Source: an uncultured Phycisphaerales bacterium
Lineage (GTDB): Bacteria; Planctomycetota; B15-G4; CAYZWU01
Assembly (NCBI GenBank): GCA_964633825.1
Contig: CAZWHE010000001.1
Span: 8,895-72,894, forward strand
Length of the DNA stretch: 64,000 nucleotides
Direction of reading: 5' to 3'
Within the stretch, counting starts at the first letter, position 1. Each line of letters opens with the position of its first letter. Below are positions 9,008-27,010 of this stretch, one piece after another. The notes beneath the pieces were generated by a model. The model was not told the DNA's origin and did not search any database. It saw only the letters and a list, made by a program, of their open reading frames with translations. Made by a program: the position numbers and the translations under genes.

Positions 9008-9892
9008 TCATGATGGAAACTGTTTCCGCTTGAACAGCATCGCGGCCGCCAGGGTAAAGACGAGCCAGAGAAGGCCAAGCACCGTCACTGAGTGGGAAAG
9101 GCTCACCTCCGCCGACCGGCTCAGCAGATCGGGGACGGGAAAGAAACCTTCGTCACCGGAGATGTTGGCCATTAGATTGCGCAGGTGATAGAGCACCGAA
9201 CAGGTGCCGATCCGGAAGGGGATGTTGGCCACAACCCCCTCGATGCAGATCGTAATGAAAAGAACCACGAGAACGGCCCGCCGGGTAATGAGGGAGAGAA
9301 GGATGCAGAAGGAACCATAAACCATGGCACCGACAACCGCGGCCGCGAGAACGGCCCAGAGAAGGGGAAGGCTGTGCAGGACCGATTCGATACCGTATCG
9401 GCTCATGCTCGTAAAATAGACCGCTCCGAGAGCGGGAATAACAATGATGAAAGTCGAGACCAGGTATGCGAGATAGGACCCGGCAAAGATCGACAACCGG
9501 GAAATGGGACAGATCAGATTGTAGATGATCGTTCGGTCATCCACGCTGTCCCCCAGCACGGAACAACCGAGAAAAATGAAAACCAGCATTTGGATGTAGT
9601 GGTAGGCGGGAACGGTGTTGATCAGAAAGAAGCGGCTTCCCCCCCCGCGGGGCGTCTCAATGATGAGGCTCGTAACGAGGAGAATGACCACGGGCATCCA
9701 CGCCAGAAGAGCGAGCGTCCAACCGCGCCGGCCCCTGAGCGGAGAGAATGCGGTATTCCTGAAGACAGCGCCGGCGGAAGCAAAGAAAGAGAGAGGATCG
9801 GGAGCACCCGGCAGTGCCGGGGCGCCCGCGGCCTCGAAGGCGCCGCCTCGATCCGGTCCCAAACTCGTTGTGTCCATTGCGCTCCCTTTCAT
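9008..9892 (-). CDS. ABC-2 type permease
   Basis: About six hydrophobic segments; DRTIIYNLICPISR motif; ATGA overlap with the ATPase (alternative start 9877). Confidence 0.8.
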   Translation of the reverse strand: MKGSAMDTTSLGPDRGGAFEAAGAPALPGAPDPLSFFASAGAVFRNTAFSPLRGRRGWTLALLAWMPVVILLVTSLIIETPRGGGSRFFLINTVPAYHYIQMLVFIFLGCSVLGDSVDDRTIIYNLICPISRLSIFAGSYLAYLVSTFIIVIPALGAVYFTSMSRYGIESVLHSLPLLWAVLAAAVVGAMVYGSFCILLSLITRRAVLVVLFITICIEGVVANIPFRIGTCSVLYHLRNLMANISGDEGFFPVPDLLSRSAEVSLSHSVTVLGLLWLVFTLAAAMLFKRKQFPS

Positions 9893-10890
9893 TTCACCAG
9901 GTAGTTGAAAACCGCCTGGAGGTTGTTGTCGGGCGAGTGAAAGCTCTCCACCTCGATCCCGTCCTCGACAACGAGCTCGCAGAGCTCGTCATAGAAGCGG
10001 TCGGGGTCGCGCGTCCTGACAAGCAGGTTTCCGTCCCCTTCATCGAGGCCGGCGCTCACCACGATTCCTCTCTCCAGGCAGCGCACGGAGAGCTTCACGG
10101 GGTCGGCCGTCTTGATCCTCACCGTGTGGGGGTGCTTGTCGATGAGGCCCCGGATATGGTCGATCGTTCCTTCGGCCACGATCCGGCCCTTGGCGATGAG
10201 GATCACCTTTGTGGTCATGGCTTCGATCTCGTAGAGGATGTGGCTCGACACGAAGATGCACCGCCCCTGCTCTCCCAGCTCCCGAATCAGGCCGATCACC
10301 TCGCGCCGCCCCATGGGGTCCATGCCGGTGAGGGGCTCGTCGAGAACGAGTATGCCGGGATCGTGAAAGAGAGCCTGTGCCAGCTTGACCCTCTGGCGCA
10401 TGCCGCGCGAATAGGCCCCGATCATCTTGTCCGCCGCCCCGGCGAGGCCGGCTCTGACCAGCACTTTCCTTGCGAGATCGGCTGTCTCTTCCGGCCGGAA
10501 ACCGCGGAAGAGGGCGCGCTTCCTGATAAATTCGAAGCCCGTCTCCCTGTCGGGAAGGACATCCATCTCGGGGACATAGCCGAGGTCTTTTTTGACTTCC
10601 CAATCGAAAAAGGGATGGCGGCCGCAGAGGGAGACGTCCCCCTGGCTCGGCAGGATCTGCCCCGTGACGAGCTTCATGATCGTCGATTTCCCGGCGCCGT
10701 TCGGACCGAGAAGGCCGGTCACGCCCGGACCGATCTCGAAGGAGACATTGTTGATTCCGATCACCTGGCCGTACCACCTGGTGACCTGGTCGAACACGAT
10801 GGGGCCCGCCGTGCCGGCTGTGCGGCTTGTTTCGCCGTTCCCGGCGGGGCCGATGCCGTCTCCCTTCCTGCTCATGACTTGACGAATCAT
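9889..10890 (-). CDS. ABC transporter ATP-binding protein
   Basis: GPNGAGKS, YSRGMRQR, LVLDEP, VSSH; start placed at the TGATG overlap with the upstream permease. Confidence 0.93.
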   Translation of the reverse strand: MIRQVMSRKGDGIGPAGNGETSRTAGTAGPIVFDQVTRWYGQVIGINNVSFEIGPGVTGLLGPNGAGKSTIMKLVTGQILPSQGDVSLCGRHPFFDWEVKKDLGYVPEMDVLPDRETGFEFIRKRALFRGFRPEETADLARKVLVRAGLAGAADKMIGAYSRGMRQRVKLAQALFHDPGILVLDEPLTGMDPMGRREVIGLIRELGEQGRCIFVSSHILYEIEAMTTKVILIAKGRIVAEGTIDHIRGLIDKHPHTVRIKTADPVKLSVRCLERGIVVSAGLDEGDGNLLVRTRDPDRFYDELCELVVEDGIEVESFHSPDNNLQAVFNYLVK

Positions 10891-11771
10891 CACTTGACGA
10901 CCTCCGTCCCCTTCACCCTTTTGAGAAGGATCACACACGCCAGAGCGTTGATCACGAGCAGGTAGAGAAGGGAAAAGACCCAGTGTAGCTGATAGTTCGT
11001 TTCGACATTCAGGATGATCCGGGCGAGATAACCCACCGACTCGCGCAGATCGATCAGCCTGAGCTCGATCAGACCGAACACCTTGGACAGAATGGCCGAG
11101 GCGATAAGGAGCGTCACGTGAAAGCCGATCCAGAGCACGGCCGCCCTCCGCCCCGTCGAGCAGAGCGAAGAGGCGGCGAGCACAACGAGGGAGGCCGTCA
11201 ACGTGATGATCAACGAGACGCCGATCATGCCCAACAGGAGAGCGGCCTCGGCAGCGAAAGTTTCGCCCTCGTCGGAGAGGAGATAATCGGACAGAAAAAG
11301 AAGCAGCCCCGGAAAGAGCGTCAGGCAGAAGAGGAAGAACGCCATGGCCGCGAACTTGCCGGTCAGGTAGTCGAGAAGCGTGATCGGCTTGGAGAAGTAG
11401 ATCTCGAGCGCGCCGGTCTTGAGATCCCGCGCGACCAGGCCGGTTCCGACGAAAAGACAGAGGAGGACGATGCCGACGAACTGGTTCAGTATGAGAAAGT
11501 TATAGTAGAAAAGCCCGTCAACGGTCGCCAAGGCGGCCAGCCCATCCGCCGCACCTCGCGGCGCACTCTTCGATAATTCGGGGACGAGGTTGTAAGCATA
11601 GATCATGCCGATCCGGACCACGAAGGGGATCATGGTCAGGCAGAAAAGAATCAAGAACTTCTTCGTCTTGAAGGACTGCCTGATCTCGTTCAGCATGATG
11701 GGGACCCAGCGGAATACTCTCCCTTCCAGGTATCCTTCCCAGTGCTTGTAGGACTGGTCGTATATGGGCAC
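10890..11771 (-). CDS. ABC-2 type permease
   Basis: GTG start at 11771 directly after the ATPase stop (MPIYDQSYKHWEG); ARDLKTGALEIYFSKPIT motif; multiple TM segments. Confidence 0.82.
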   Translation of the reverse strand: MPIYDQSYKHWEGYLEGRVFRWVPIMLNEIRQSFKTKKFLILFCLTMIPFVVRIGMIYAYNLVPELSKSAPRGAADGLAALATVDGLFYYNFLILNQFVGIVLLCLFVGTGLVARDLKTGALEIYFSKPITLLDYLTGKFAAMAFFLFCLTLFPGLLLFLSDYLLSDEGETFAAEAALLLGMIGVSLIITLTASLVVLAASSLCSTGRRAAVLWIGFHVTLLIASAILSKVFGLIELRLIDLRESVGYLARIILNVETNYQLHWVFSLLYLLVINALACVILLKRVKGTEVVK

Positions 11772-11772
11772 T

Positions 11773-12723
11773 TCAGTCCTCCACCGACCTGATAAAGAGA
11801 TCTTCGAGCGATTCTTCGGCAGGAACGAGGGAACGGAGCTGCAGCCCTTCCTCGCGCGCCATTCTGAAGATCTCGACGGTCCGGGCTTCTTTCGGAACGA
11901 AGAGCTTGCCTGCGGGACGGACCTTCTCGAAGGTAAATCGCCATCCCGCCTTGTCCGCGGCAAGGCGGAACCTGTCCCGGTCTCCCCTCACCTCCACGTC
12001 GTACACCCTCTCGGCCGACACCTTCAGCTCCGAGATCCTGCCCGCCCGGAGAACCTCTCCGTCTTTCAGAAGGACCACGTGTTCGCACGTTCTCTCCACA
12101 TCGTTCAGGAGGTGGGAAGAGAGGAGGAGGTGGATGTCCTTCCTGTGAGAGAGGTCGTAGATGAGATCGAGGACTTCCTCGCGCCCTTTCGGATCGAAGC
12201 CGTTGGTCGGCTCGTCGAGAATGACGACCTCGGGATCGTGGACAATGGCCTGGGCCAGCTTCACGCGCTGACGCATGCCCATCGAGTAGCCGTCCACGGG
12301 GCGGTAGCGCGCCTCGCCGAGGTCGACATACTCGAGAACCTCGTGGGCCCGCCGGCGGGCGTCTTTCCACGGCATCCCGACGAGCCGGCCGCAAAAAGCG
12401 ACGTATTCGAAGCCGTTCATCCCCGGAATGTGGCAGTCGTGCTCGGGTGCGTAGCCCACTTTTTTCCGAATCTCGATCCCGTCCTTCGAGATGTCCCTGC
12501 CCAGGAGCGAGCCCTTCCCGCCGGAGAGCTCCTGGAGACCGAGAAGGGCCTTGATCAGGGTCGATTTCCCCGCACCATTCGGGCCGAGAAGCCCCACGCT
12601 CCCCCCCTCCATCGAGAGGGTCAGGCCTCTCAGCGCCAGGAATGAGCCGTACGACACCTTGAGATCATCGAGACCGATCAATCGGTTCCGCTGGCTCATG
12701 TTCGTTTCCGATTCATGCATCAT
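11773..12723 (-). CDS. ABC transporter ATP-binding protein
   Basis: GPNGAGKS, YSMGMRQR, VILDEP, LSSH. Confidence 0.93.
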   Translation of the reverse strand: MMHESETNMSQRNRLIGLDDLKVSYGSFLALRGLTLSMEGGSVGLLGPNGAGKSTLIKALLGLQELSGGKGSLLGRDISKDGIEIRKKVGYAPEHDCHIPGMNGFEYVAFCGRLVGMPWKDARRRAHEVLEYVDLGEARYRPVDGYSMGMRQRVKLAQAIVHDPEVVILDEPTNGFDPKGREEVLDLIYDLSHRKDIHLLLSSHLLNDVERTCEHVVLLKDGEVLRAGRISELKVSAERVYDVEVRGDRDRFRLAADKAGWRFTFEKVRPAGKLFVPKEARTVEIFRMAREEGLQLRSLVPAEESLEDLFIRSVED

Positions 12724-13008: not shown

Positions 13009-14025
13009 ATGATCCTGGAAAATTGCGCTCTCTTCCTCTGCCTTCTCATTGCCTCCCCCGGCGACGAGCCGGTCCCACAGACGGCTTCTGACAAAGCTGC
13101 GGCACGCAACGCTTTCATGGAAGCCTGGTTCGTGGAAACGCATGACAAGAAGGCCGAGGAGTCTCTTATCCTCTATAACAAAATCAGAGAGCTCTACCCG
13201 TCGAGCTCCTTTGCTCCGGAAGCCCTGGCCAGAACGATCGGACTGGAGGTCCGGCTTGGCAAGAAGGAAGCAGCCGCGCTTCATCTCGAAGAACTGGAGG
13301 CAAAACATCCTGATTGTACAGACCTTATCAGGAAGGCGCGCTGGAACCTGGAGAGAGAGCAGCGTCGAAGCAAGCGGCCCTCCCGACGGTTTCCTCCAAA
13401 AAAGCCGGAATCCGAGCAAAGCGGGATCGGGACCGAACCCGATGCCTCCGAATTCCCGCTCGTCGAAGGAAAAGGCCAACATCCCGGCAGAACCGGCGAA
13501 CCGAGCGGTGGGAATCAACCGAGGATGCGGAGGCCATCGGGAATCGACTTCTCTCTCATCGACCGCCTTCTCGACGAAGCCCGCAAGAGGGAGAAAGAGG
13601 GAGACATAAGAGGCGCCGAATTGCTGCGCGACAGGGCCGTTGATCTGATTTTGGAACAGAAGTCCGGCAGAGGTCAGCGCGCCGGATCCATCCCCCCGAA
13701 AAGAGAAAGGCTGCAGCGCGAAGCGAAAAGAATCGAAAAGAGAATCAAGGAACTGGAGGCCGAGGGGAAGCACGCAGAAGCCGAAGAGCTTCGCGCAGAG
13801 GTTGAAATCATCCGCCGGAACCTGAAATCCCTCAAAAGAAACAAGAAAACCGACAAGGATCTCAAAAGGCTCTTCCCTCCCGAAGATAATGAGAAGAAGG
13901 ACGATATCGAAATCCTCAGGAGAAAGATCGAAGCGTTGAAAAGGGAGCTCGACGAGAAGCCCGCCGAGGAAAAAACTCCTCCTCCCGAGGAGGCCGGGCC
14001 GGTAACGACCGACGACTCGGGGTGA
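13009..14025 (+). CDS. Predicted secreted protein with TPR-like helical pair and charged coiled coil
   Basis: N-terminal hydrophobic signal; YNKIRELYPSSSFAPEAL TPR-like pattern; long E/K/R heptads. Confidence 0.65.
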   Translation: MILENCALFLCLLIASPGDEPVPQTASDKAAARNAFMEAWFVETHDKKAEESLILYNKIRELYPSSSFAPEALARTIGLEVRLGKKEAAALHLEELEAKHPDCTDLIRKARWNLEREQRRSKRPSRRFPPKKPESEQSGIGTEPDASEFPLVEGKGQHPGRTGEPSGGNQPRMRRPSGIDFSLIDRLLDEARKREKEGDIRGAELLRDRAVDLILEQKSGRGQRAGSIPPKRERLQREAKRIEKRIKELEAEGKHAEAEELRAEVEIIRRNLKSLKRNKKTDKDLKRLFPPEDNEKKDDIEILRRKIEALKRELDEKPAEEKTPPPEEAGPVTTDDSG

Positions 14026-14062: not shown

Positions 14063-14605
14063 TCAGAGCTCTTCATATCGGATACCGCGGCCGCAGGCCG
14101 GTTCGATATCGCGTAAAAGCCCGTTCAGGGGGCCGTCATCCCCGGTCGTTTCGAGAAAGGAGCTCGCTTCTTTCCTTTCAGCCGCTGTTTTCAGGATCTC
14201 CCGGCGCGCTTCGAGTCTGACACGCTTCGTTTTCAGCCGCTCCAGACAGGCACGCGACGAAGCCCTTTCTCTCCTCACTTCAACGAGCTCTTTTCTGAGC
14301 TCCGCTTCACAGGCGCGGCTTATTCTCTCGATATTCAGATCGGTATATCCGGCAGAGGAGCCTGTTTTCTTTATTTCGCCGATTACTTCGTCGAGCCTCT
14401 GAAACAGGATTTTTTCCGTCCGATCCAGTCTCTGCAGAACGGACTGGACTTTAGCGATCCGCAGGTTGATCTCATTGATGCCGCTTCGCGCGGGCTCTTC
14501 TTCTTTCCGTTTTTCATTCGAACCCTCATACCCGGGAATCTCGAGCCCATCCCAGGTCACAACGAAGAGAAAGAGAGCGGCGCAGATTATGGTCGATATT
14601 TTCAT
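14063..14605 (-). CDS. Coiled-coil hairpin protein with N-terminal signal or anchor
   Basis: Start moved to ATG 14605 (MKISTIICAALFLFVV); two long amphipathic helices separated by a G/S loop. Confidence 0.6.
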   Translation of the reverse strand: MKISTIICAALFLFVVTWDGLEIPGYEGSNEKRKEEEPARSGINEINLRIAKVQSVLQRLDRTEKILFQRLDEVIGEIKKTGSSAGYTDLNIERISRACEAELRKELVEVRRERASSRACLERLKTKRVRLEARREILKTAAERKEASSFLETTGDDGPLNGLLRDIEPACGRGIRYEEL

Positions 14606-14660: not shown

Positions 14661-15494
14661 CTAAAGATTACCTTTTTCGATCTCCTCGAAGCAGGCCTCG
14701 ATATCGGCGACCACGTCTCTGTCGGACGAGACTCCCGGTTTCGAGTAGTCGATGCCGCCCACATAGTCGCCGTTGATGCGAATCCTCTCTTCGAGAATCC
14801 GATCCTTCATATCGAGCTGCTTCTCGAAATCGGCCAACATCTTCTGGGTCTTGCCGATCTCGGTCTTGAATTCATGCGCCAGATCGACGGCGTTCACCGT
14901 TTCGGCGAAGATCTCCTTTGCCTTGTACTTCTCGAGCTCGGCCTTCAAAAACATCACCTTGGCCGTGAGCTCGACTTTCACGTTTTCGGCGTTGGTCACA
15001 TTCTCGCGGGCCATCTCGAGGGTGCCCTTCTTGGTTCTCAAAGTTTCGGCGAGATTCTCCAGGGTCTCGCCCTGGATTCTGAAGATCTTGAGCTTCTCGG
15101 CGGCATCGCGCGACACCTCGCCGTGGGAGTACTCCCGGCCGCCGATCAGGTATGCTTCCTTTCCATCGGCAAGAAGCCGCGACGCGCGCTCCAGCGTCTC
15201 GCGGAGCCTCCCCGAGGCCTCTTCCTTCTCGGCGATGATGCCTTCGAGGTACTCCACATCCACCTGGCGGCGGATCACGTCGGTCTTCAGTTTCTCGATC
15301 TCCCTTTTGAGACCGCTCACCTTGGTTTCGAGGAGAGCCAGCTTGGTTTCGAGCCCCTGGGCTTCCTCGATCTTTTCCTGAATGATGCGCTTGCCCGTCC
15401 CGGCATAGAGCTTGAGCTTCTCGGGATAGACAAGAGCACCCACGACTCCGACAACCACAACGGAAAGAATGAACAGCTTGAATATGGTCTTCAT
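14661..15494 (-). CDS. PspA/IM30 (ESCRT-III)-like coiled-coil protein with N-terminal TM anchor
   Basis: TM segment LFILSVVVVGVVGALVY; long helix ending RASRLLADGKE (compare the PspA hairpin A..AL..G.E); further long helices. The CDS is solid; the family call is inference. Confidence 0.6.
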   Translation of the reverse strand: MKTIFKLFILSVVVVGVVGALVYPEKLKLYAGTGKRIIQEKIEEAQGLETKLALLETKVSGLKREIEKLKTDVIRRQVDVEYLEGIIAEKEEASGRLRETLERASRLLADGKEAYLIGGREYSHGEVSRDAAEKLKIFRIQGETLENLAETLRTKKGTLEMARENVTNAENVKVELTAKVMFLKAELEKYKAKEIFAETVNAVDLAHEFKTEIGKTQKMLADFEKQLDMKDRILEERIRINGDYVGGIDYSKPGVSSDRDVVADIEACFEEIEKGNL

Positions 15495-15544: not shown

Positions 15545-15982
15545 TCAATCCGCCGCACACGCCGATGGCTGCTCGGCAAAAGCGGCCTGATGATTGTTCT
15601 TATTGTGGGCCGACAGAAAAGCGTCGGCGATACCGATGAAGTATGGAATGACGAGCCAGCTCGTCACGAAGATGAGAACACCCTTGAGAATCTGGTGGTT
15701 GTAAACCTGGCCGGCGCCGGGCAGGACAGTGCTCAAGAGGGCGGCCAGCACGGGATCCTTGTAATCAGGCCGGCCGCAGCAGGGGCATTCGAGCATGCCC
15801 TTCACCGCCGCTTTGATGTGATGAGACGGCCGGCTGGGCCGGGGATTTTCTCCGAAGCGTTTCAGGCAGCACGGGCAAGCGCCGGCCCCCTTCTCGCCGA
15901 GCGAGGGAAGCCTTTCCCCGCAATACCCGCAGTATTTTTCGTCGTCCTGTGCTTCAGACTTTTTCTTTTTGAGCAGAAACAT
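15545..15982 (-). CDS. Small Zn-ribbon membrane protein with KDP..A..LS..PG.GQ.YN motif
   Basis: CGYC, CPCC and CPCC clusters, then KDPVLAALLSTVLPGAGQVYN and TM helices; GGAGG RBS. Confidence 0.75.
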   Translation of the reverse strand: MFLLKKKKSEAQDDEKYCGYCGERLPSLGEKGAGACPCCLKRFGENPRPSRPSHHIKAAVKGMLECPCCGRPDYKDPVLAALLSTVLPGAGQVYNHQILKGVLIFVTSWLVIPYFIGIADAFLSAHNKNNHQAAFAEQPSACAAD

Positions 15983-16544
15983 GATGACCTCCGCAACCCA
16001 TCATAAGCGACAAAGCAAAAGCCGCGGCAAAACCGGTCCAGATCGCCCAGGGCGGGATGACCACACCCATACCGTCGGGCAGCCAGACAAAGAGGAAGGC
16101 GAGCAGGGCGGCGGCGCCCCAGAGCATCCAGTCGCCCTCCCCGACGGTCACCCCCCGCGTCCCTTCATCGAGGCGGTTGTTCTTCTTGATCGCCGCCATG
16201 CGCGCATCCCAGGCGCAGAAGAGGAGGAGAAAGATCAAAACCGGGAGCGGCACGACATCCCTGTTGCCGAAACAGACAAGAGCGCCCGCGAGAAAGAAGA
16301 GCCCCCGAAAAACAGAACCGCAGTAGATCTGTCCCAGACCGGGCATCGCCGAGAGCATGAAAGCCAGGGTGGGCGACTTGAAATTCGCCTTTTTCTTCGG
16401 CTTTTTGAAGGGCTTTCGCCCCGGCACGCAGTCGGGGCAATAGTTTTTCGACTTGTCGAGCCTCCTGCACTCGTGGCAGACGGTCTTGCCGCAGGCCACG
16501 CAGCGCGCCGCGCCCGGTCTTTTCGTGTGTCCGCAGTTCGGCAC
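15954..16544 (-). CDS. B-box-type Zn-finger membrane protein with the same motif
   Basis: CGH..CVACGKTVCHEC..YCPDC; KSPTLAFMLSAMPGLGQIYCG; about four TM helices; GAGG RBS and GTG start. Confidence 0.8.
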   Translation of the reverse strand: MPNCGHTKRPGAARCVACGKTVCHECRRLDKSKNYCPDCVPGRKPFKKPKKKANFKSPTLAFMLSAMPGLGQIYCGSVFRGLFFLAGALVCFGNRDVVPLPVLIFLLLFCAWDARMAAIKKNNRLDEGTRGVTVGEGDWMLWGAAALLAFLFVWLPDGMGVVIPPWAIWTGFAAAFALSLMMGCGGHHVSAQKEKV

Positions 16545-16572: not shown

Positions 16573-16590
16573 TTTCAAAGGGTGTGCCCG
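16573..16590 (-). promoter_or_regulatory. Putative sigma54 (-24/-12) promoter, non-canonical -12
   Basis: CGGGCACACCCTTTGAAA = GG-N10-GA with GGCAC and TTG conserved; implied start about 16563, just upstream of the RBS at 16551-16554. Confidence 0.45.
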
Positions 16591-16787: not shown

Positions 16788-18788
16788 TTACGCTTCCGGG
16801 CTCGCTTGTTTGTTGATTTCTTCAGCCCCGGTATGGGCCTGCCGGATTCCATAAAAATAGGGCAGAATGAGCCAAAAGGTGAGCAGAACGAGGATGCCTT
16901 TGCGGGTGTCGCCGTTATAGAACTGCCCCAGCCCGGGCAGCATGGCGGAAAGGACGGCCGCAAACACGGGATCCTTGCGGCGCGGTCCGGGCCGGAGAGA
17001 TTGCCCTTCTTCCTTCTTTTTTCTATGAAAAAGATGATGCAAAGGACCGCGGCCTTTTCCCATGTGCTTCTCTTTGGGTTTTTTCTTGGGCTTTATCTTG
17101 GCCTTTTTCCGTGCGAAATAAAAAGCGCCGGCCGCCATGTCGTGAAGGGTGCGCTTTTCAGGGCTCATGAAGAGGTACCCCACGTCGATAAGCAGCCAGG
17201 CCAGACAGATCGTTCCCAGCGTGGGAACAATTGTCGGCTGGGCCGTCTCGGAGGCCCTGGCAAGACCGTCCAGCGCGCGACAGAAAGCGTTCCCGCCCTG
17301 ATCCCACGACTCGATGAATAAAATCGGAAACTTCGCACCCATTCCGAAAAGGACGGGATAAAAGAGAAGTGTCCTGAAAAAAGCCGCCACCCAGCCAAGG
17401 TCCTCGCCGCTCGCCTTTCCCACGCGGCATCTGAAGAACGTCTTGCCCAGGGTGACTCCCCCCTTCGCATCGGAGATGAAAAAATAGAAAAAAACGAAAA
17501 GGAGAAAGACGGCATCCCACAGCCAGTATCGAAAGACCCCGCTCTCGAGGTTGTACAGAGCGGACAGAACCGCAAAATCCCCCGCCCAGGCAAGGAAGCG
17601 CCTCAAAAGCCCGGCCCGGACGAGCCGGATCTCCTCGGAAGCGGGAGCCTCCCTTTCTTCGATCACATAGCTCGGTATTCTCCTGACACCCTTTGAGCGC
17701 TGCTGATCCTTGCTCTTGTCACGGCCCCGCCCCTGTTCGGAGGAAAGAGCGGGAGCCCGCCCTGTCTTCAAGGATTCGAGGTCGGCAATGAGGGCCTCGT
17801 ATGACGTGTACCTGTCATCCTTCTTCTTGGACATCATCTTCCGGATAACGGCCGAGAGCGCAGCCGGAATCTTCGGATTGCGCGAGTCGGGCGGGGGGAG
17901 GTCATCCCTGATGTGCCTGAGGATGATGCCGACCGGGCTCTCCGCTTCGTAGGGCGGGGATCCCGTCAGGAGGTGGTAAAAGGACGCGCCCAGGGAATAG
18001 ACATCGGTTCTGTAGTCGAGGGGGCGGCTTTCGCCCTGCTCGGGCGACATGTAATAGGGCGTTCCCACGATGGCGCCCGTCAGGGTCAGGCTGCTCTGGC
18101 TCGACGCGATCCGGGCCAAACCGAAATCAGTGATTTTCAGGGTCCCCTTCTTGTCGAGAACCATGTTGGACGGCTTGACGTCCCTGTGAATCACCCCTTG
18201 GGCCGCGGCCGCCGCCAGGCCCCGGGAAGCCTGGATCATGAGGTCGATCGCCCGGTCCGGATCGAGCGGTCCCTCTCTCCTTAAAAGACGGTCGAGGTTC
18301 TCGCCGTCCACCAGCTCCATGGCATAGTAGGGGATCCCTTTCCACGTGTCCGTGTAATAGATCTGGACGATGTGAGGATTGTTCAACCGCGCCACGGAAC
18401 GGGCTTCCCTCTGAAAGCGGGCGACGAAATCTTTCTGTTCCCGCAGCTTTCCCGAGAGGATCTTGAGCGCCACGTTCCGCTGAAGCTTTTGGTCCACGGC
18501 GATGTAGACCTTTCCCATCCCGCCCTCGCCGATTACACCGGTCACGCTGTAGGGCCCCAGGGAAGAACCGATCGCAATGTCGCCGGGCCGGGGGAGTTCG
18601 AGAGTCGTTGTGACACGATCTCCGCCGGGAGAAGGACCACCCTCACGCGACGGGGGGCGGCTCGAATCTCCCGGAGGGAGGACATTGATCCTTTTGCAGG
18701 ACGGACACTCGAACTCGACGCGGTCGTCCCCCGGTTCCTTGACCAGGATCTCGCCGCAGGGACAGATGATTTCGACCGTGTCCTTCAT
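16788..18788 (-). CDS. Hanks-type Ser/Thr kinase with N-terminal Zn ribbon, RDD domain and C-terminal TM motif
   Basis: CPCG..CPSC; GEGGMGKVY, VALK, HRDVKPSN, DFGLAR, GTPYYMSPEQ; RAGLLRRFLAWAGDF..GVTLGK RDD pattern; KDPVFAAVLSAMLPGLGQFYNG. Start set at ATG 18788. Confidence 0.92.
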   Translation of the reverse strand: MKDTVEIICPCGEILVKEPGDDRVEFECPSCKRINVLPPGDSSRPPSREGGPSPGGDRVTTTLELPRPGDIAIGSSLGPYSVTGVIGEGGMGKVYIAVDQKLQRNVALKILSGKLREQKDFVARFQREARSVARLNNPHIVQIYYTDTWKGIPYYAMELVDGENLDRLLRREGPLDPDRAIDLMIQASRGLAAAAAQGVIHRDVKPSNMVLDKKGTLKITDFGLARIASSQSSLTLTGAIVGTPYYMSPEQGESRPLDYRTDVYSLGASFYHLLTGSPPYEAESPVGIILRHIRDDLPPPDSRNPKIPAALSAVIRKMMSKKKDDRYTSYEALIADLESLKTGRAPALSSEQGRGRDKSKDQQRSKGVRRIPSYVIEEREAPASEEIRLVRAGLLRRFLAWAGDFAVLSALYNLESGVFRYWLWDAVFLLFVFFYFFISDAKGGVTLGKTFFRCRVGKASGEDLGWVAAFFRTLLFYPVLFGMGAKFPILFIESWDQGGNAFCRALDGLARASETAQPTIVPTLGTICLAWLLIDVGYLFMSPEKRTLHDMAAGAFYFARKKAKIKPKKKPKEKHMGKGRGPLHHLFHRKKKEEGQSLRPGPRRKDPVFAAVLSAMLPGLGQFYNGDTRKGILVLLTFWLILPYFYGIRQAHTGAEEINKQASPEA

Positions 18789-18807
18789 GCCTCGATTCAA
18801 CGGAACC

Positions 18808-20700
18808 TTACTCCGTCTCCTTGATTCCATACAGCTTGATCTTGTCGTAAAGCGTGGGTCTGCTGATGCCAAGAATACGGGCGGCCTGTTTCTTGTTCCA
18901 CCCCGCATATCGAAGCACACTCACCACATGCGCCCGCTCTACCTCTTTGAGGGTCACTTCCGCATCGGGAGCCGCGGTCTGGGCGTCGCCGGCTCGTCCC
19001 GTCCAGTTTTCGAAAGCGAGAGGCCCCTCATCGGCCAGAATCAGCTCTCGCTCGAGAACATTTCGCAGCTCACGGACGTTTCCCGGCCACCGGTGGGCCC
19101 TGAGACGCTTCATCCCCGCGGGAGAGACCGTTCTTTCCCCATGGGCCAGTTTCTTCAGAAGATGCGAGACGAGCTCGGGTATGTCTTCGGCGTGCTCCCT
19201 GAGGGGCGGGGCTTCGATCTGGAACACGCGGAGACGGTACAAAAGATCTTCGCGGAACTCGCCCTTCGCTGTTTTATCGTCCAGGTCGGTGTTCGTGGCC
19301 GCAATGATTCTTACGTTCACATGGACCGGCGCTTCCCCGCCAACGGGGTAAAAGCTCTTTTCTTCCAGAACCCTGAGGAGCTTCACCTGAATCGGGAGAG
19401 GGAGCTCACCCACCTCGTCGAGAAAGAGCGTCCCCTCGTGGGCCAGCTCGAAGCGCCCGAGCTTCCGGTCGACGGCCCCGGTGAAAGCGCCCTTCTCGTG
19501 ACCGAAAAGCTCGCTCTCCACCATGGATTCGGGGATGGCGCCGCAGTTGATCGATACCATGGGCCTCTCACACCTCCCGGACTGTGAGTGAAGGGACGAG
19601 GCGATCACCTCCTTGCCGGTCCCGCTTTCCCCCACGATCAGGATCGTGGCGTCGGCGGTCGCTGCCTTCCGTACGAGCGTGCGGACATGCTCCATCGCCT
19701 TGGAACGACCCACCAGCTCGGTCGTGCCCGGCACCTTCGACCGCAGGATTTTGTTGTCCCTTTCGAGCCTGTTCCGGTATCCCAAGTTCTCAATAGCCAG
19801 GGCCGCCTGGGACGTGAACGCTGCCAGGACCTGCAGCTTTTCCTTTCCGAAGGACGTTTCCTTTCCGAAGGACGTTTCCTTTCCGGGCACACCGAGGGAA
19901 GAGAGGTAGACTGCGCCGGTGACCCTGCCCGCCGATCTCATGGGCGCGGCCAGGATGCGGGCTGTTCCGGCGGCGGCAATGGACCGCGCCTTGCGCAGCG
20001 CGGGGTCGTTCAAGGGATTCACGGCCACAACGGAAACGTTGCCGCCCATCACCTTGTCGAGCACCGTTCTGGAAGGTCTGTATTCCTCTACGCCGCTTCT
20101 GTTGATCTCACTAAGAATTTTTATATCCTCGCCATCATCGCCGTCCCGCAGGAAGACGCATCCCAGGTCCATTCCAAAGAGATCCATAACAATGGGCAGA
20201 AACTCGTCGAGCATTTTATCCGAGGAATCGGATGTGCCGACCAGTTCGGCCACTCGGAAAAGAGCTTCGATCGGATCTCCGCCGAGACCGGCCCGGCTGA
20301 AGACCCCGGAGTCGGGGACCTTTTCGGCTGCCGCCTTCAGGGCGACCTCAACGGTCGTATCGCCGAATACTTCCGTCTTTTTCCCTGCAGTCGATTGCAT
20401 AGGCTCCCTGTCATAGAGCAGGAGCGAGGCTTGTCCTACAACGATTATGTCTCCGGGCTTCGCAACGGCTTCGGTGACCTTGCTTCCGTTGAGATAGGTC
20501 CCGTTCGTGGAGCCGAGGTCCTTCAGGACGGCTCCACCCTTTCGGGGCTTCAGCTCGCAGTGCTCGCGTGACACACCATCGTCGTCCAGAACAACATGGC
20601 AAGAGGCGGAGCGGCCTACGCGGAGAACGCCCGTCAAGTGGTAAACCTTTTCGATGCTCCCGCGGCCTTTATAAAGTAGGAACAGGTTCTCTTTCGCCAT
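18808..20700 (-). CDS. Sigma54-dependent activator, FHA-GAF-AAA+-HTH
   Basis: FHA VGRS..VSREH..STNGTYLNG; GAF LAAPMRSAGRVTGAVYL; GESGTGKE, GAFTGA, FLDEVGE, WPGNVREL; Fis-type HTH. Start set at ATG 20700. Confidence 0.95.
   Translation of the reverse strand: MAKENLFLLYKGRGSIEKVYHLTGVLRVGRSASCHVVLDDDGVSREHCELKPRKGGAVLKDLGSTNGTYLNGSKVTEAVAKPGDIIVVGQASLLLYDREPMQSTAGKKTEVFGDTTVEVALKAAAEKVPDSGVFSRAGLGGDPIEALFRVAELVGTSDSSDKMLDEFLPIVMDLFGMDLGCVFLRDGDDGEDIKILSEINRSGVEEYRPSRTVLDKVMGGNVSVVAVNPLNDPALRKARSIAAAGTARILAAPMRSAGRVTGAVYLSSLGVPGKETSFGKETSFGKEKLQVLAAFTSQAALAIENLGYRNRLERDNKILRSKVPGTTELVGRSKAMEHVRTLVRKAATADATILIVGESGTGKEVIASSLHSQSGRCERPMVSINCGAIPESMVESELFGHEKGAFTGAVDRKLGRFELAHEGTLFLDEVGELPLPIQVKLLRVLEEKSFYPVGGEAPVHVNVRIIAATNTDLDDKTAKGEFREDLLYRLRVFQIEAPPLREHAEDIPELVSHLLKKLAHGERTVSPAGMKRLRAHRWPGNVRELRNVLERELILADEGPLAFENWTGRAGDAQTAAPDAEVTLKEVERAHVVSVLRYAGWNKKQAARILGISRPTLYDKIKLYGIKETE
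19841..19885. repeat. In-frame 18-bp tandem duplication (GKETSF x2.5) in the GAF domain
   Basis: TCCTTTCCGAAGGACGTT repeated. Confidence 0.9.
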
Positions 20701-20728
20701 GAATTCTGAAAACTCCTGTCTCTCTGTC

Positions 20729-20764
20729 AGAAGACGATTTCTTCTCCTAGAAGACGATTTCTTC
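20729..20764. repeat. Two palindromic 16-mers at 20-bp period upstream of the activator
   Basis: AGAAGACGATTTCTTC at 20729-20744 and 20749-20764. Confidence 0.8.
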
Positions 20765-23536
20765 CGTCCGGCAATCAAAGAAATCGTAACGGTAAAAGCG
20801 TTCTCTGCTCAAACCGGGAACAATGGACCGTTTCGATGAAAACCCCCCGGCCGGCATTATCCGAGAGTAATAGAGAAACCTCCGGTCATCCACGAGACCG
20901 AGCACTTTCAAGGGACAGGTTCCGGCCCAGACGACTTGTTCCGATTCGTCATCGTACCTGCGGAACAACAGGCGTGTCCCTTCCCTGTCGATAATCAGGA
21001 ACCCCTTGTCGTGATAAAAGGGAAAAAGCCCGGCCGCGTTTCCATCGTAGAGAACACAGGTCTTGTGGGCAACCGGGTCGACGAGGATGATTCTGAGCAC
21101 TCCCGTGGCATCGCTGACCGCCTTTCGCAGCGGGACCGTCTCCCAGACGATGACATCGCCCTGCGCCCTGTCGAGGCAATAGCGGATCTCCTTCCCTTCG
21201 GCGGCATAGCACGACTCCACCCGCGCCGTGGAATCACGGTACAAGAAGAGCTCCGTTCTTTTGCCTCTGCTGCCGACGAAAAAGATCCCGTCATCACATC
21301 CTTTGATATCGGTGAGCTCCACACCGTGCACGGGTATGACGTATGCCACCTTTTCCTCGGTCGAATAGAGAGCGACCCTCTCCCTGGAGCCGGGAGGCAT
21401 CACCGCCCTGACGAGGCCCCTTCCTTCGATGAACTCGAGCCTGTGAAAGATGCGGTTGAGAAAGGAGCGTTCCCTTTTTTCATCAAGGTCTTTGAGCCGG
21501 TGCTGCCAGAACGAGCCCCTCCACTCATTGATCAGGAGCTTGTCCCCCGAGGGCGAGGGGGAGAGGAGCACGTCACTTCCCAGAAATTTGATCCTCTTCC
21601 GATCCGCTTCCACGAGATACCAGCTCGACCCGAAACCTGTTTTTTCCTCCCCCGTTTCTTTGCGTCCCGTCCGGACAAGGAGCCTGTTCTCATTTAGCCA
21701 GACCAGATCGGAGACAAGTGAATCGAAATAAAATGTCCGTTTCCGGCGAAACCCGGAATCGGTCACAACGAGCGGGAAATCTCCCCTCTTCACATCACGT
21801 TCGAGAGCGGCCGCCAGCCAGTTGTTCAATGGAGAAGGAATGACGAGACGAGGCCGGATTTTGATGTAGCCCGTGTTGTTGGAGCGATCCACGTCGGGCC
21901 ATTCGTAGTCCGGGTCGATGACAACACCGACAACCCCCTCTTCCGACAGCGTTTTCTTCCAGACCGCCCGTCCCGATGAGAGCGTCACCTGGTTCGGAAT
22001 TATTTTATTGTCGGTCACAACATCGATGCCGACCTTTCCCCGGAAGTCGAGATCCCCCTGGTTTTCGATAACGACCCTGATCCGGCAGTCTTTCTTCAGA
22101 GGCTGAACGGAAAGATCAGCTACGACCAGATCGAGATCGAGACGGTTCCGGGCCCAGTCCCGGAAAAGCCAGTCGAGCCCTTCCACACCCCGCTCCTTGC
22201 AGCACCGCGACCAGAGATCTTCATTGTCGCTCCCGGGAGGGGCCCGGAGAATCTCGAGGCAAACCTCTTCGAAGGTGTCGTTCCCCACCAACCGCCGTAC
22301 GACATCGAGAAGGAACCCCCCGAATTCAACTCCTTTATCTTCCCTCCCGCTCCTTTCGCGGCCCGACACGGACAAACTCTGCCGCGGCAGGCAGGATCCC
22401 CCGGGAGAAAAGAGATCGACCCTTTTGAAAGCACAGATCCCGTCCTCCCCGCGACTCCGCCCTTGGGAAACGAAGCGGATGGCCCACCCCATAGCAATCT
22501 CTTCCCTCGAAAAGAGGCTGTTTTCCAGCGGCTTCGATCCCGCCTGCAGTTTCGGAGCCATCCAGAGGAGGCCGAAGGCGAAGGCCTGCTCATCGATCGA
22601 CAGGCTGCGGGGAACAAGAAGGGTTCCGGCGCCGTCACAGCGCAGACCGCCCGCGAAGCTTTCCGGCATGAGAATGAAATTCATCGACTCGGGGCGGACC
22701 GCGGGGAGGGATCTCTCGAAAAAACCGTACAAGACTTCGAGGTTTTCCATGAGCCCCGGCGGGCCTGCGCCGAGAGGACAGAGCGCGACCGGTATCTCTC
22801 CGACAGTCATCCTGATCGGGGCGGTTCGACATCCCGCAACCGCGAAAGCCTGAACAGGCCGGGCGAGAGACCACTCGAAACAAGTCCGGCCGGTTCCATG
22901 GGGGAACCGGTCCGGATCAGCGGGCTTGGCCGAGCTCGCCGGCGCCACGGGCATGAATCCCGAAGGAAAGGTGACCCTGAGATCCACATCCATTGCACCG
23001 TTCGAGACCCGCGGATAGTACGCGTCATCGGGATCGAGGTAGATGAGATCATGGGTTATCACGCTCTTCGAGCCCGAAATCCTGAAATCACCGCTGTAGT
23101 CGATTTCGAGAACCCCCGCTTTTTCCGAGCTCACCTCGTCGGGAAAGCCCACCCGGTAGAAAGGGCCTATCCTGCCGAATCCGAGATTCCGCCCCTCCCA
23201 TCTCACTCCGATCACTTTAAGGGCCGGATTCAATCCAAAAAAGAAACCGATCCATCCGGGATCGACGGTCATGTCGATCCTGGCGCTGCCCCTTATCCCG
23301 GCTGTTCCGGTCGCTTCTGCCGTAACGGTATCCAGATCGAGCTGAAGGTCCATTTTGCGGGGGGTCTGGTTCCCGAAGAAAAGGCCCAAGCGGCTGTCTA
23401 AAAACCGGATCGCCGCAGGCGTCCTTTCAAACAGAACAGTGATGCCGAACAGGATAAAGATCAATGCCAGGACAGCGGCCAGCGAAACCGCCATTGCCGG
23501 CTTTCCTCTGAAAAAGCGCCTGAATGATCCGGACAT
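20747..23536 (-). CDS. Membrane-anchored M1-aminopeptidase-like protein lacking HEXXH, with CARDB-like Ig domain and beta-propeller-like C-terminus
   Basis: M1-type beta domain (IYLDPDDAYYP, MDVDLRVTFPSG), VVIDPDYEWPDVDRSNN; no HEXXH anywhere in the translation. Confidence 0.6.
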   Translation of the reverse strand: MSGSFRRFFRGKPAMAVSLAAVLALIFILFGITVLFERTPAAIRFLDSRLGLFFGNQTPRKMDLQLDLDTVTAEATGTAGIRGSARIDMTVDPGWIGFFFGLNPALKVIGVRWEGRNLGFGRIGPFYRVGFPDEVSSEKAGVLEIDYSGDFRISGSKSVITHDLIYLDPDDAYYPRVSNGAMDVDLRVTFPSGFMPVAPASSAKPADPDRFPHGTGRTCFEWSLARPVQAFAVAGCRTAPIRMTVGEIPVALCPLGAGPPGLMENLEVLYGFFERSLPAVRPESMNFILMPESFAGGLRCDGAGTLLVPRSLSIDEQAFAFGLLWMAPKLQAGSKPLENSLFSREEIAMGWAIRFVSQGRSRGEDGICAFKRVDLFSPGGSCLPRQSLSVSGRERSGREDKGVEFGGFLLDVVRRLVGNDTFEEVCLEILRAPPGSDNEDLWSRCCKERGVEGLDWLFRDWARNRLDLDLVVADLSVQPLKKDCRIRVVIENQGDLDFRGKVGIDVVTDNKIIPNQVTLSSGRAVWKKTLSEEGVVGVVIDPDYEWPDVDRSNNTGYIKIRPRLVIPSPLNNWLAAALERDVKRGDFPLVVTDSGFRRKRTFYFDSLVSDLVWLNENRLLVRTGRKETGEEKTGFGSSWYLVEADRKRIKFLGSDVLLSPSPSGDKLLINEWRGSFWQHRLKDLDEKRERSFLNRIFHRLEFIEGRGLVRAVMPPGSRERVALYSTEEKVAYVIPVHGVELTDIKGCDDGIFFVGSRGKRTELFLYRDSTARVESCYAAEGKEIRYCLDRAQGDVIVWETVPLRKAVSDATGVLRIILVDPVAHKTCVLYDGNAAGLFPFYHDKGFLIIDREGTRLLFRRYDDESEQVVWAGTCPLKVLGLVDDRRFLYYSRIMPAGGFSSKRSIVPGLSRERFYRYDFFDCRTEEIVF

Positions 23537-26600: not shown

Positions 26601-27010
26601 CTGTGAATGACGGCCAGCGTCTCCGACACCTGGACGGCGATTTTGCGAAGCATGTCATCGCTCAAGGAACCGCTCTCCTCGAGGACCGATTTGAGGGTCA
26701 TGCCCCGCAGATATTCCATGACGATGAAGTAAAAGGTGTCGCCGCCCAAACGCTCCGAGCCCACATGGTGAATCCGAACGACGCCGGGGTGCTTCAGCGC
26801 CATGCCGAGACCGGCTTCAAATTTGAAACGCGACCTGATTCCGTGATCCCGGGCGAAGCGGGGATGAAGGACCTTAACGGCCACAGCGCTTCCCGCCGCG
26901 AGACCGCGCCGGGTCCTTGTCACCTTCCCGAGATAGACGGTTCCCATACCGCCTGAACCGAGGGGACGGACCAGCCTGATACCACGAAGCTCCCGCCCTG
27001 CCAGGCTCAC
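23651..27010 (-). CDS. Ser/Thr kinase - STAND-type AAA ATPase - TPR fusion
   Basis: LGSGGMGTVY, HRDLKPEN, DFG, APE; FYGRERE, GEAGVGKT, GNPYFVLE; several TPRs; GTGA overlap with rbfA. Confidence 0.92.
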   Translation of the reverse strand: MSLAGRELRGIRLVRPLGSGGMGTVYLGKVTRTRRGLAAGSAVAVKVLHPRFARDHGIRSRFKFEAGLGMALKHPGVVRIHHVGSERLGGDTFYFIVMEYLRGMTLKSVLEESGSLSDDMLRKIAVQVSETLAVIHRRGIIHRDLKPENIFLEKKGVVKIGDFGFSRKIWRTGESIDSGFYGTVAYAAPERFGPARVGTTSDLYSLGVVLYELAVGENPFLGSDLISTISNHIGLTPEPPASLGVLVSPFMSALIMALLEKDPKKRLGPGARLRRILEGGEADPWWRSVRSEIFPEFVDRRRAALHISRKTSFYGREREIAGLEKLIGEARGGKGGRVAVIEGEAGVGKTRLLDRLLERMDMDQQEGDLVMVQGIQSEVRVPYSALISAVLAALDLKEPDRDLLQSRLREKLADLFLDRPQTADAFADFLVATSSGPKAGVPSPETAAQLFKEFFTLLSKKKLLILVVENIQGMGKPARDVLLEIARHIGGMRVMMILTARSGEPLSGEESDLVGFLEELDREKGTRFFRLSRLDEKDVKGMLEELGFPAPVVKDRVGSRVFGVTEGNPYFVLEVARLLLDKGVLNDENPDWLELLRYVPATIQDVFYRRLFRLAVEERRFLEQASVFGVRFRVEDVVGALGMDLADAVGIVSKLESRSSLIRPTVGKRHRFDHVLIREMILDSLGDEERRACHERAGLYFEKMSTTRSLTGREILKTAVHFSRAGNHAGALRYFFQAQDYLLFRNAHESALALAKNAVNHVAVLREAGQDFDRGLECRINLREARIAAYLGKRDVEFRALRRAFAAAGNQRLRSLVSLRMGQHYYAVSRFVSALHCVEAALNGMRRARDMTGEADAHQTLAGILADIGENADSVKHLEEARELRRNLGDRIGQARILTSMGLIHLERGERSLAREAFRESLSIFRKARNDEGIAEVLIGVGKLHLESGKQDFAEKALRRAAEIAHRLGRFFLRARSLTDLGECLLEKKNFEEAADILDEAFHLAEDGADKRLIARTLATRARLMCRPGAGSRNIERALKESRRAVAETRSASLANREQVYSLNALATVFLEMGKARSALAITRMSIRILGETRRGTKLEKETLRLHGAASGIDPLRPA

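Follow-up and report, generated by a model that had tools for sequence, protein, structure and literature searches.

To our knowledge, the PspA, Vipp1 and ESCRT-III proteins characterised so far all work via an amphipathic helix on the cytoplasmic or stromal side of the membrane. The membrane architecture and division machinery of Planctomycetota are poorly understood. In a survey of about 2,500 PspA homologues, more than 98% were reported as a bare PspA_IM30 domain, and zinc-ribbon membrane partners have already been noted in phage shock protein (Psp) neighbourhoods (PMC11237479). In Vipp1 and ESCRT-III, helix alpha5 has been described as binding over the tip of the hairpin, either in its own subunit or in an adjacent one (Interface 1); this contact is reported to define the polymer, and it was also picked up by co-evolution (PMC8281802). 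The gene described here (14661-15494, minus strand) encodes a protein of 277 amino acids, the target, and lies in a window of 64,000 nucleotides (nt) of contig CAZWHE010000001.1 from an uncultured Phycisphaerales bacterium; "the window" denotes this whole stretch. The target may be a PspA-like protein acting on the outer face of the cell membrane. It is explained here as a divergent protein of the PspA/Vipp1 (IM30) branch of ESCRT-III or, at the minimum, its close structural analogue, an explanation which, taken in full, we consider evenly balanced between right and wrong. What the analysis shows is the fold layout, the family and the conservation of the gene order and of the promoter-like element; homology to PspA, export, polymerisation and the regulatory logic are the parts that we infer.

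The target belongs to a planctomycete protein family that is previously undescribed in the literature searched. Twenty-one close homologues, most at 53-71% identity, conserve a tip motif and the pentapeptide GGIDY among other positions. An exhaustive search at E<=1e-3 recovered at least 186 cluster representatives at 50% identity, nearly all of which are 260-300 amino acids long and alignable end to end. Profile comparison of the target subfamily with this large family (hhalign probability 100%, E 3e-42) indicates that the two are unquestionably homologous. Named members are all from Planctomycetota (Pirellulaceae, Lacipirellulaceae, Bremerella cremea and "Planctomycetes bacterium"). The literature search found no account of the family, of a signal-bearing PspA or of a kinase/FHA/ECF neighbourhood.

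The preliminary description, which was made from the sequence of this stretch, reported an open reading frame (ORF) with a hydrophobic N-terminus and an insert, and this is confirmed by the exact minus-strand coordinates, a check on the DNA and hydrophobicity calculations. The ORF translation begins with MKTIFK, continues with LFILSVVVVGVVGALVY and then reads PEK. Residues 103-134 read RASRLLADGKE-AYLIGGREYSHGE-VSRDAAEK, and the reverse complement of nucleotides 15117-15155 corresponds to AYLIGGREYSHGE, which verifies the insert on the DNA. The target has the following features.

14661-15494, minus strand: target ORF from the ORF list, encoding the PspA-like hairpin protein P0001 (277 amino acids).
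15426-15476, minus strand: N-terminal hydrophobic segment, residues 7-23, after MKTIFK; putative Sec-type signal or signal-anchor (hydrophobicity 0.8, moment below 0.1).
15360-15425, minus strand: basic, moderately amphipathic predicted helix, residues 24-45; possible alpha0 equivalent (moment 0.33-0.39).
15168-15353, minus strand: alpha1-like hairpin arm, residues 48-109, from the predicted model (confidence above 90), alignment onto PspA alpha1 and covariation.
15117-15155, minus strand: beta-hairpin insert AYLIGGREYSHGE, residues 114-126, at the hairpin tip (predicted strands 114-117 and 120-123).
14895-15116, minus strand: alpha2/alpha3-like returning arm, residues 127-200 (predicted helix 124-200; sub-threshold PspA_IM30 register in relatives).
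14775-14858, minus strand: alpha4-like helix, residues 213-240, after a low-confidence linker (predicted model; collinear profile alignment).
14745-14759, minus strand: GGIDY motif, residues 246-250; lies in a linker modelled as disordered and does not vary among the 21 close homologues.
14667-14714, minus strand: alpha5-like acidic C-terminal helix, residues 261-276 (predicted model; covariation with tip-proximal residues).

The architecture of the target consists of a helical hairpin with alpha4- and alpha5-like helices, a beta-hairpin at the tip and a hydrophobic N-terminus. AlphaFold2 (AF2) was run twice on the target, with a 21-sequence alignment (predicted local distance difference test, pLDDT, 71.5) and with a 128-sequence alignment (pLDDT 81.9; predicted template modelling score 0.61). 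Both runs gave the same layout of helices 2-22, 24-45 and 48-109, strands 114-117 and 120-123, helix 124-200, a weak linker, helix 213-240, a disordered stretch with GGIDY at 246-250 and helix 261-276. The beta-hairpin (AYLIGGREYS) caps the helical hairpin formed by helices 48-109 and 124-200, and both the helical hairpin and its beta tip have pLDDT values above 90 in both runs; the beta-hairpin-like insert that had been proposed at the tip is thereby confirmed. In the predicted model, the order of parts follows the ESCRT-III plan of an alpha1/alpha2-3 hairpin, a linker "elbow", alpha4 and alpha5.

The tip beta-hairpin and GGIDY are the two best-conserved elements of the family. The tip motif, Y-x-I-G-x-R-x-Y, is among the best-conserved parts of the 21 close homologues, where I117 and Y122 are invariant, and Y-x3-G-x2-Y is kept in the 128-sequence family alignment. 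The tip insert is not a product of chance, because the motif is conserved in the close homologues and in the wider family. The counterpart of GGIDY in distant members is GGIPI or similar.

The relation to PspA was examined by profile-to-profile alignment (hhalign) with two PspA/Vipp1 profiles. The first contained eight sequences, namely E. coli PspA, a second enterobacterial PspA (locus L087), Synechocystis Vipp1 and five viral-contig homologues, and the second contained 88, formed by adding 80 PspA homologues from metagenome contigs (30-39% identity) to the original eight. Viral contigs (6 sequences) and metagenome contigs (the 80) were the sources of diversity; the sequences listed by a search with E. 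coli PspA as seed and by a scan of genome contigs were enterobacterial and contributed little, and the three diverse hits listed by tblastn against plasmids were left out of the profiles. The family matched the 8-sequence profile with a probability of 46% (score 34.4), and this rose to 79% when the profile was deepened to 88 sequences (79.4% in local and 85.2% in global alignment, P 1.5e-5 and 7e-7), a value under the usual 95% level. Family columns 60-275 are collinear with PspA 29-230, with alpha1 to alpha5 in order, and the family beta-hairpin appears as an insertion at the PspA hairpin tip (position ~84).

Several controls were run on this alignment. Reversed profiles scored 18.5-21 with a probability of 1-2%. 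Decoys in which blocks of 7, 14 or 28 columns were shuffled, so that composition and heptad periodicity were retained, had mean scores of 17-23 (standard deviation 3-4); one of 180 in one set of trials and none of 150 in another came up to the real score. The partner-protein family encoded beside the target, which served as an unrelated coiled-coil control, reached 2% with PspA and 5% with the target family. In profile-to-sequence searches the signal is faint and above the null, with five real sequences at 15 bits or more and none among reversed or block-shuffled sequences. Remote homology to PspA is probable but unproven on these sub-threshold statistics, which were calibrated with decoys made for this analysis.

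Matches to the Pfam model PF04012 (PspA_IM30; gathering score 33.9 bits) are in line with this alignment. PF04012 is the commonest Pfam match across the family, with sub-threshold matches in 10 of 128 members, four of which share one register, in which profile positions 86-91, where alpha2 starts, are matched by family residues ~128-134. The match of the best member, P0136, is near full-length and collinear (residues 27-237 on profile positions 5-183). Some genuine PspA proteins on large viral contigs carry a 14-residue tip insertion at the same position as the family beta-hairpin, so the PspA tip site tolerates insertions. These bona fide PspA homologues, with ~14-residue insertions at the hairpin tip, are found at loci L091-L094 on IMG/VR contigs of 94-360 kb.

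A Foldseek search against the PDB was made with the better AF2 model (pLDDT 81.9) as the query. The best nine matches are Vipp1 chains (E 1.7e-3 to 1.3e-2), and Synechocystis PspA is found at ranks 11 and 21. With the first model, weak matches were obtained to PcsB and EnvC (E 0.06-0.16) and to prefoldin beta (2zdi_C, E 0.21); the match of V-ATPase subunit D to the better model has an E value of about 0.02-0.05.

Covariation within the family was measured by mutual information with average product correction on 222 family sequences. The antiparallel helical hairpin was recovered by this approach, since 8-10 of the 40 best long-range pairs have i+j values of 226-246 (2.6 expected), with a register of about 235. 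The next strongest covariation between regions links the C-terminus (241-276) and the tip (100-142). The tip and C-terminus window ranks in the top 1-3% of 10,295 placements for the top 40 pairs and in the top 4-5% for the top 100, and only windows that cover the hairpin hold more top pairs. Y250 covaries with tip residues 104, 107, 117 and 131, and the pairs 104-250, 107-250 and 117-250 rank 1, 3 and 4 (3, 19 and 21 without the close subfamily). In the last helix, residues 261-269 show covariation with positions 105 and 131-135 near the tip, and the pairs 105-266, 135-268 and 131-269 are inside the top 40. This pattern matches Interface 1 of ESCRT-III and Vipp1 as far as a small alignment can indicate. 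Because the tip hairpin and GGIDY are conserved and the tip covaries with the C-terminus, beta-strand addition is proposed here in place of a helical contact.

A number of results weigh against membership in the PspA branch. The target has no PF04012 or Snf7 match at E<=1 in Pfam, and P0136, at 24.7 bits (E 2e-5), falls under the PF04012 gathering score. When hidden Markov models (HMMs) of the family were compared with PDB sequences, PspA and Vipp1 were absent among the matches (all 19; the best 60 of 90), which were headed by the coiled coils of the phage P22 tail needle, GCN4 fusions and RipA. The target subfamily alone has an hhalign probability of 0.5-6% with PspA; as this is not significant, the link to PspA is transitive, via the distant family. 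Foldseek gave no match at E<=1e-3 against the PDB; V-ATPase subunit D, the Smc5/6 arms and YscO come no more than an order of magnitude behind Vipp1, a chemoreceptor is also close, and plain hairpins superpose on the target model as well as Vipp1 does. The covariation is based on about 160-185 effective sequences and simple mutual information, and mean-field direct coupling analysis of the 222 sequences was discarded as uninformative, with N-terminal gap artefacts dominating its output.

The main rival explanation is set beside these data: an exported or anchored coiled-coil hairpin, non-homologous to PspA, that serves as a periplasmic strut, adaptor or ligand, contacts through its tip a partner such as the kinase exterior, the cell wall or the secreted 180-amino-acid protein, and acts as a sensor or feedback element of the kinase pathway, as CpxP does for CpxA, instead of forming a polymer that remodels membranes. 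Every piece of PspA evidence is sub-threshold, and generic coiled coils rank over PspA in the HMM-to-sequence searches, both of which suit such a protein. It is opposed by the collinear PspA similarity, which matched decoys almost never reach and the coiled-coil control does not approach, by the nine top fold ranks, all held by Vipp1, by the agreement of helix number, order and lengths with alpha1-alpha5 and by the covariation resembling Interface 1. We consider this rival unlikely, with a substantial claim to attention. The likeness to PspA that had been claimed for the target thus stands for the helical plan, with a collinear alignment at 79-85% and Vipp1 as the top nine folds, but does not extend to a PF04012 match in the target itself. 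Generic coiled coils as the best structural matches had been named as the outcome that would speak against it, and half of that outcome was found, with Vipp1 first and generic hairpins close behind.

Homologues carry the labels "hypothetical", "chromosome segregation ATPase", "CwlO-like" (one source) and "phage shock protein A" (once) in their sources. Scans of the target and its relatives gave no match of the target family to any Pfam or NCBIfam model, and no Pfam threshold that could name the family was passed by the target or 127 of the 128 relatives scanned. The SMC or "chromosome segregation ATPase" label was rejected for the target, which has 277 amino acids and no ATPase domain; its SMC-type similarity is that of a weak coiled coil (TIGR02169, E 0.01, 13.5 bits against a cutoff of 729 bits). 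A periplasmic adaptor of the HlyD/membrane fusion protein type was also rejected, as the AF2 model is all-helical save for the 10-residue tip hairpin and HlyD-family Pfam matches were not obtained. Three longer homologues (P0076, P0132 and P0133) were considered as domain fusions and dismissed; no Pfam domain was found in their N-terminal extensions, which appear to stem from wrongly called starts.

The N-terminus distinguishes the target from PspA and Vipp1. Residues 5-24 have a mean Eisenberg hydrophobicity of 0.80-0.84 and a hydrophobic moment of 0.05-0.09, compared with 0.3 and 0.42-0.49 for alpha0 of E. coli PspA and about -0.06 and 0.57-0.61 for alpha0 of Synechocystis Vipp1. The high hydrophobicity and low moment therefore identify a segment of the transmembrane or signal type and no amphipathic helix; an amphipathic alpha0 of the PspA/Vipp1 type was not found in residues 5-24 by these calculations. 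The segment is followed by a weaker amphipathic helix (residues 24-45, moment 0.33-0.39 in the AF2 model), which is aligned with PspA alpha0 solely within the low-confidence part of the hhalign alignment. Since this helix is separate and lies behind the segment, the hydrophobic segment may be an addition to alpha0 rather than its substitute. The earlier statement that the segment replaces helix 0 is therefore right that it is not amphipathic, but is not supported as to substitution.

Family N-termini consist of a tail of 4-6 residues with about two Lys/Arg (MxKK) and then 17-24 uncharged residues. In the distant subfamily, the segment ends in Gly (107 of 120) followed by x-x-[A/L/V]-x-Ser|Tyr, and the relaxed signal peptidase I-like form, G-x-x-[AVSTIL]-x-[SAG]|[YHF], is present in 112 of 222 family sequences. 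The target subfamily has Leu or Val at the equivalent -1 position (Leu in the target). The Leu at -1 favours an uncleaved N-in anchor, which is the more likely form of the target segment, and VGA|L at residues 18-20 may be an alternative cleavage site. By its sequence, the N-terminus resembles a Sec signal or anchor, and the protein is probably exported; for the body of the protein, we consider an extracytoplasmic location somewhat more likely than not. The lack of an export signal, a trait of cytoplasmic and stromal PspA and Vipp1, does not agree with the family N-terminal layout, from which the orientation is predicted.

The charges make this orientation less straightforward, as the flank behind the segment is basic too (+3 in the next 15 residues of the target, against +2 for the N-tail). 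Lipoprotein variants were sought among the family N-termini and amounted to four poorly placed lipobox-like strings, and no topology-informative fusions were found among family members. These points bear on a second alternative, in which the protein is PspA-like and inserted N-out/C-in, so that a reverse signal-anchor tethers a cytoplasmic body to the inner membrane face, where it could be phosphorylated by the kinase and read by FHA domains. The basic flank (about 2.5 Lys/Arg as the family average), the poor signal-peptidase site of the target subfamily at the family's conserved position and the cytoplasmic location of canonical PspA, FHA domains and kinase domains agree with it, as do three threonines (T144, T151 and T154) that are invariant in the close subfamily. 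The threonines are not conserved in the wider family, however, and a tail of 4-6 residues with two Lys/Arg is poorly suited to translocation. The N-flank carries more positive charge than the C-flank in 55% of the family and less in 23%, with a tie in another 23%; a canonical n-h-c signal-peptide layout is found in about half of the family, and the operon partner is clearly secreted. The N-out/C-in arrangement is on this account distinctly unlikely. Of what had been claimed for the N-terminus, a true transmembrane anchor is favoured by the Leu at -1, but the family signal peptidase I pattern and VGA|L leave room for cleavage; the periplasmic orientation fits the short MxKK tail, but is not favoured by the basic downstream flank.

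The target lies in a cluster of genes on the minus strand, with the following members.

14063-14605, minus strand: secreted coiled-coil partner (180 amino acids), behind the target in all six close loci that reach there.
15545-15982, minus strand: small membrane protein with an N-terminal zinc ribbon and a DUF5683/TM2-like module (Pfam DUF5683, 1.9e-6); present in 7 of 7 loci.
15954-16544, minus strand: small membrane protein with a zinc ribbon and membrane segments (weak Pfam matches to both DZR and DUF5683); presumed first gene of the operon; present in 7 of 7 loci.
16788-18920, minus strand: Ser/Thr kinase with an RDD membrane domain and a C-terminal DUF5683/TM2-like module (Pkinase 1.3e-49, RDD 8.7e-15).
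18808-20778, minus strand: FHA-GAF-sigma54 activator, an enhancer-binding protein with a Fis-type helix-turn-helix (Sigma54_activat 5.8e-69, FHA 1.2e-19, GAF_2 3e-8, HTH_8 3.3e-13).
20747-23536, minus strand: conserved protein of 929 amino acids at the cluster head, upstream of the sigma54 activator, with no Pfam match.
9008-12723, minus strand: two accessory ABC ATPase/permease gene pairs; the first permease is ABC-2 and the second (9008-9892) has no Pfam match.

The close-subfamily loci comprise the window and six independent metagenomic loci (L001, L005, L006 and L181-L183), of which L181 stops right after the target and L183 starts inside the kinase gene. The gene order is a protein of ~900 amino acids, the FHA-GAF-sigma54 activator, the Ser/Thr kinase, two zinc-ribbon membrane proteins, the target and the partner. 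The order from activator to target was counted in 7 of 7 close loci (with L183 starting inside the kinase), and the ~900-amino-acid ORF is at the cluster head in five of the six related loci and in the window, L183 ending short of it. The kinase and both zinc-ribbon proteins end in the same DUF5683/TM2-like module (P-x-L-A-x-x-L-S-x-x-P-G-x-G-Q-x-Y), and this shared module suggests that the three may form one membrane complex. No PspB or PspC domain was found in the two small membrane proteins by Pfam, where the matches are DUF5683, TM2 and DZR.

The partner gene encodes 176-204 amino acids across the close-subfamily loci, and its orthologues have clean signal peptides with cleavage sites such as AHG|E and SSA|E. 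A signal-like N-terminus in the target and a secreted partner next to it would also suit a periplasmic protein-protein role for a coiled coil unrelated to PspA. The partner was tried as a paralogue of the target or of PspA and rejected (hhalign 0.3-5% and 2%). It ends in G-I-R-Y-E-E-L and its orthologues in DGIDYEIF or GGDLYAQEF, with a GGIDY-like end in three of six orthologues only.

The ABC gene pairs raise a third alternative, that the target is an EnvC/PcsB/CwlO-like coupler of the downstream ABC transporters whose hairpin binds the outer domain of a permease and transmits ATP-driven movements. The two pairs follow the partner in five of the six close loci that reach that far, PcsB and EnvC are among the weak fold matches of the first model, and one homologue bears the name "CwlO-like" in one source. 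The target has no LytM, CHAP or NlpC/P60 domain, however, and the permeases are of the ABC-2 type, not FtsX. L001 and all five distant loci lack the ABC genes, and EnvC and PcsB are outside the top 50 fold matches with the better model. A coupling role of this kind appears very improbable.

Two other regions also contain ORFs. The window alone has, inserted between the partner and the ABC genes, an ORF of 338 amino acids (13009-14025, plus strand) with a hydrophobic N-terminus, a weak TPR match and a C-terminal half rich in charged residues; relatives have ~250 nt there. A 407-amino-acid minus-strand ORF that overlaps 13009-14025 looks spurious. Directly upstream of the cluster, a second large kinase of 1119 amino acids (23651-27010, minus strand) contains Pkinase, AAA_16 and TPR domains.

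In the distant subfamily, a Ser/Thr kinase of ~700 amino acids (423 in L099) is encoded downstream of the homologue in 5 of 5 loci, and a gene for an extracytoplasmic function (ECF) sigma factor follows in 5 of 5, after the kinase and one or two unannotated proteins. Between the homologue and the kinase there is an FHA protein in three loci, a 190-amino-acid protein without annotated domain in one and nothing in one. The proteins between the kinase and the ECF gene (loci L095-L100; 215-551 amino acids, no recorded Pfam domain, 5 of 5 distant loci) may be anti-sigma or coupling factors. The constant of the family is its linkage to Ser/Thr kinases, with FHA in most loci, whereas the transcription output varies between sigma54 and ECF. 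Linkage to a kinase is the only feature that all 12 examined loci share, which also fits a non-homologous coiled coil working in a kinase pathway.

A candidate sigma54 (-24/-12) promoter was identified upstream of the first zinc-ribbon gene, and elements of the same kind were found in all close loci.

16574-16589, minus strand: candidate sigma54 promoter GGGCAC-ACCCT-TTGAA, 29 nt upstream of the GTG start.
L183: promoter-like element TGGCAC-ACCCT-TTGTT.
L182: promoter-like element TGGTAT-GCCCT-TTGTT.
L181: promoter-like element CGGCAC-AGGCC-TTGTT.
L006: promoter-like element CGGCAT-GGCGC-TTGTG.
L005: promoter-like element CGGCAC-GCCTT-TCGAT.
L001: promoter-like element TGGCAC-GCGGA-GTGAT.

The pattern GG(C/T)A(C/T)-N5-(T/G)(T/C)G is present in 7 of 7 close loci within otherwise diverged spacers. 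In the four loci that were measured it lies 29-44 nt upstream of the first zinc-ribbon gene, and in all seven it is at the equivalent spot. The relaxed pattern turns up roughly once in 10 kb of strand, which means that seven co-located elements are not a chance result. In enterobacterial loci, a search with a pattern of this kind also hits the known promoter region of pspA. One result tells against a functional sigma54 promoter: in 7 of 7 loci another base stands in place of the canonical C of the -12 GC. A search for transcripts of the region in sequencing runs gave matches in DNA runs of a marine metagenome only, and the window itself is of marine metagenomic origin. At the -12 position, the conserved element always has G and then A or T. 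Should it be functional, the -12 consensus of sigma54 promoters in planctomycetes may be a deviant one.

Under the PspA-branch explanation, the target would be inserted N-in, with its helical body on the periplasmic face of the cytoplasmic membrane; members of the target subfamily would be tethered, and those of other subfamilies possibly released by signal peptidase. Self-association would occur by hairpins packing side by side. The GGIDY strand and the last helix would attach to a hairpin tip, in their own subunit or an adjacent one, where the beta-hairpin would be the docking site; this contact would be the counterpart of Interface 1. Expression would start from the sigma54-type promoter ahead of the two zinc-ribbon membrane-protein genes, driven by the adjacent FHA-GAF enhancer-binding protein, which would itself be set by the neighbouring membrane Ser/Thr kinase. 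The module would then be an envelope-stress or membrane-maintenance system analogous to PspF-PspABC. A broader version, in which a phylum-wide exported ESCRT-III/PspA protein polymerises in the periplasm by beta-hairpin/GGIDY strand exchange, is switched by Ser/Thr-kinase/FHA signalling via sigma54 or ECF factors and repairs or shapes the invaginated planctomycete membrane from outside, is tentative and on the doubtful side. The link to planctomycete membrane invaginations is speculation.

If the explanation is true, the combination of the same helical plan with an export-type N-terminus extends the ESCRT-III superfamily to the other face of the membrane, and the tip beta-hairpin is a new assembly element for that superfamily. 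The kinase/FHA linkage gives a testable handle on envelope-stress control in planctomycetes. If the target is an unrelated coiled coil, a kinase, an activator, two zinc-ribbon proteins and two exported coiled-coil proteins with a sigma54-like promoter still form a new regulatory unit.

The target resembles PspA, Vipp1 and LiaH in the order and lengths of its helices (hairpin arms of ~60 and 75 residues, a linker, an alpha4-like and an alpha5-like helix) and resembles PspA and Vipp1 in its total length of about 270 amino acids. The target family differs from PspA and Vipp1 in having an export-type hydrophobic N-terminus in place of an amphipathic alpha0, a conserved tip beta-hairpin of 10-13 residues, GGIDY (invariant in the close homologues) and no KAEDPxK motif; it is also predicted to be extracytoplasmic and to be controlled by a Ser/Thr kinase and FHA domains. 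Like the proteobacterial Psp regulon, the module has a sigma54 enhancer-binding protein next door, a conserved -24/-12-like element and two small membrane proteins encoded along with the hairpin protein. Its activator has FHA and GAF inputs, whereas PspF has none, and a Ser/Thr kinase is part of the module. The small membrane proteins are zinc-ribbon/TM2-like rather than PspB/PspC, the -12 element is atypical, and an ECF sigma factor replaces the sigma54 activator in distant relatives of the target.

The likeness to CpxP and Spy is one of logic only, as these are exported all-helical hairpins that are induced by, and feed back on, an envelope-stress kinase. They have about 140 amino acids, LTxxQ motifs and a histidine kinase pairing, and no sequence or fold match to them was obtained. 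EnvC, PcsB and CwlO share a long antiparallel coiled coil outside the membrane near ABC genes and gave weak fold matches, but the target lacks a hydrolase/LytM domain and its ABC genes are neither FtsEX nor family-wide. Prefoldin beta and V-ATPase subunit D, which also gave weak fold matches, contain two long antiparallel helices joined via a short beta-hairpin; unlike the target, they are cytosolic, shorter and without an alpha4/alpha5-like extension, and they show no sequence signal and an unrelated gene context.

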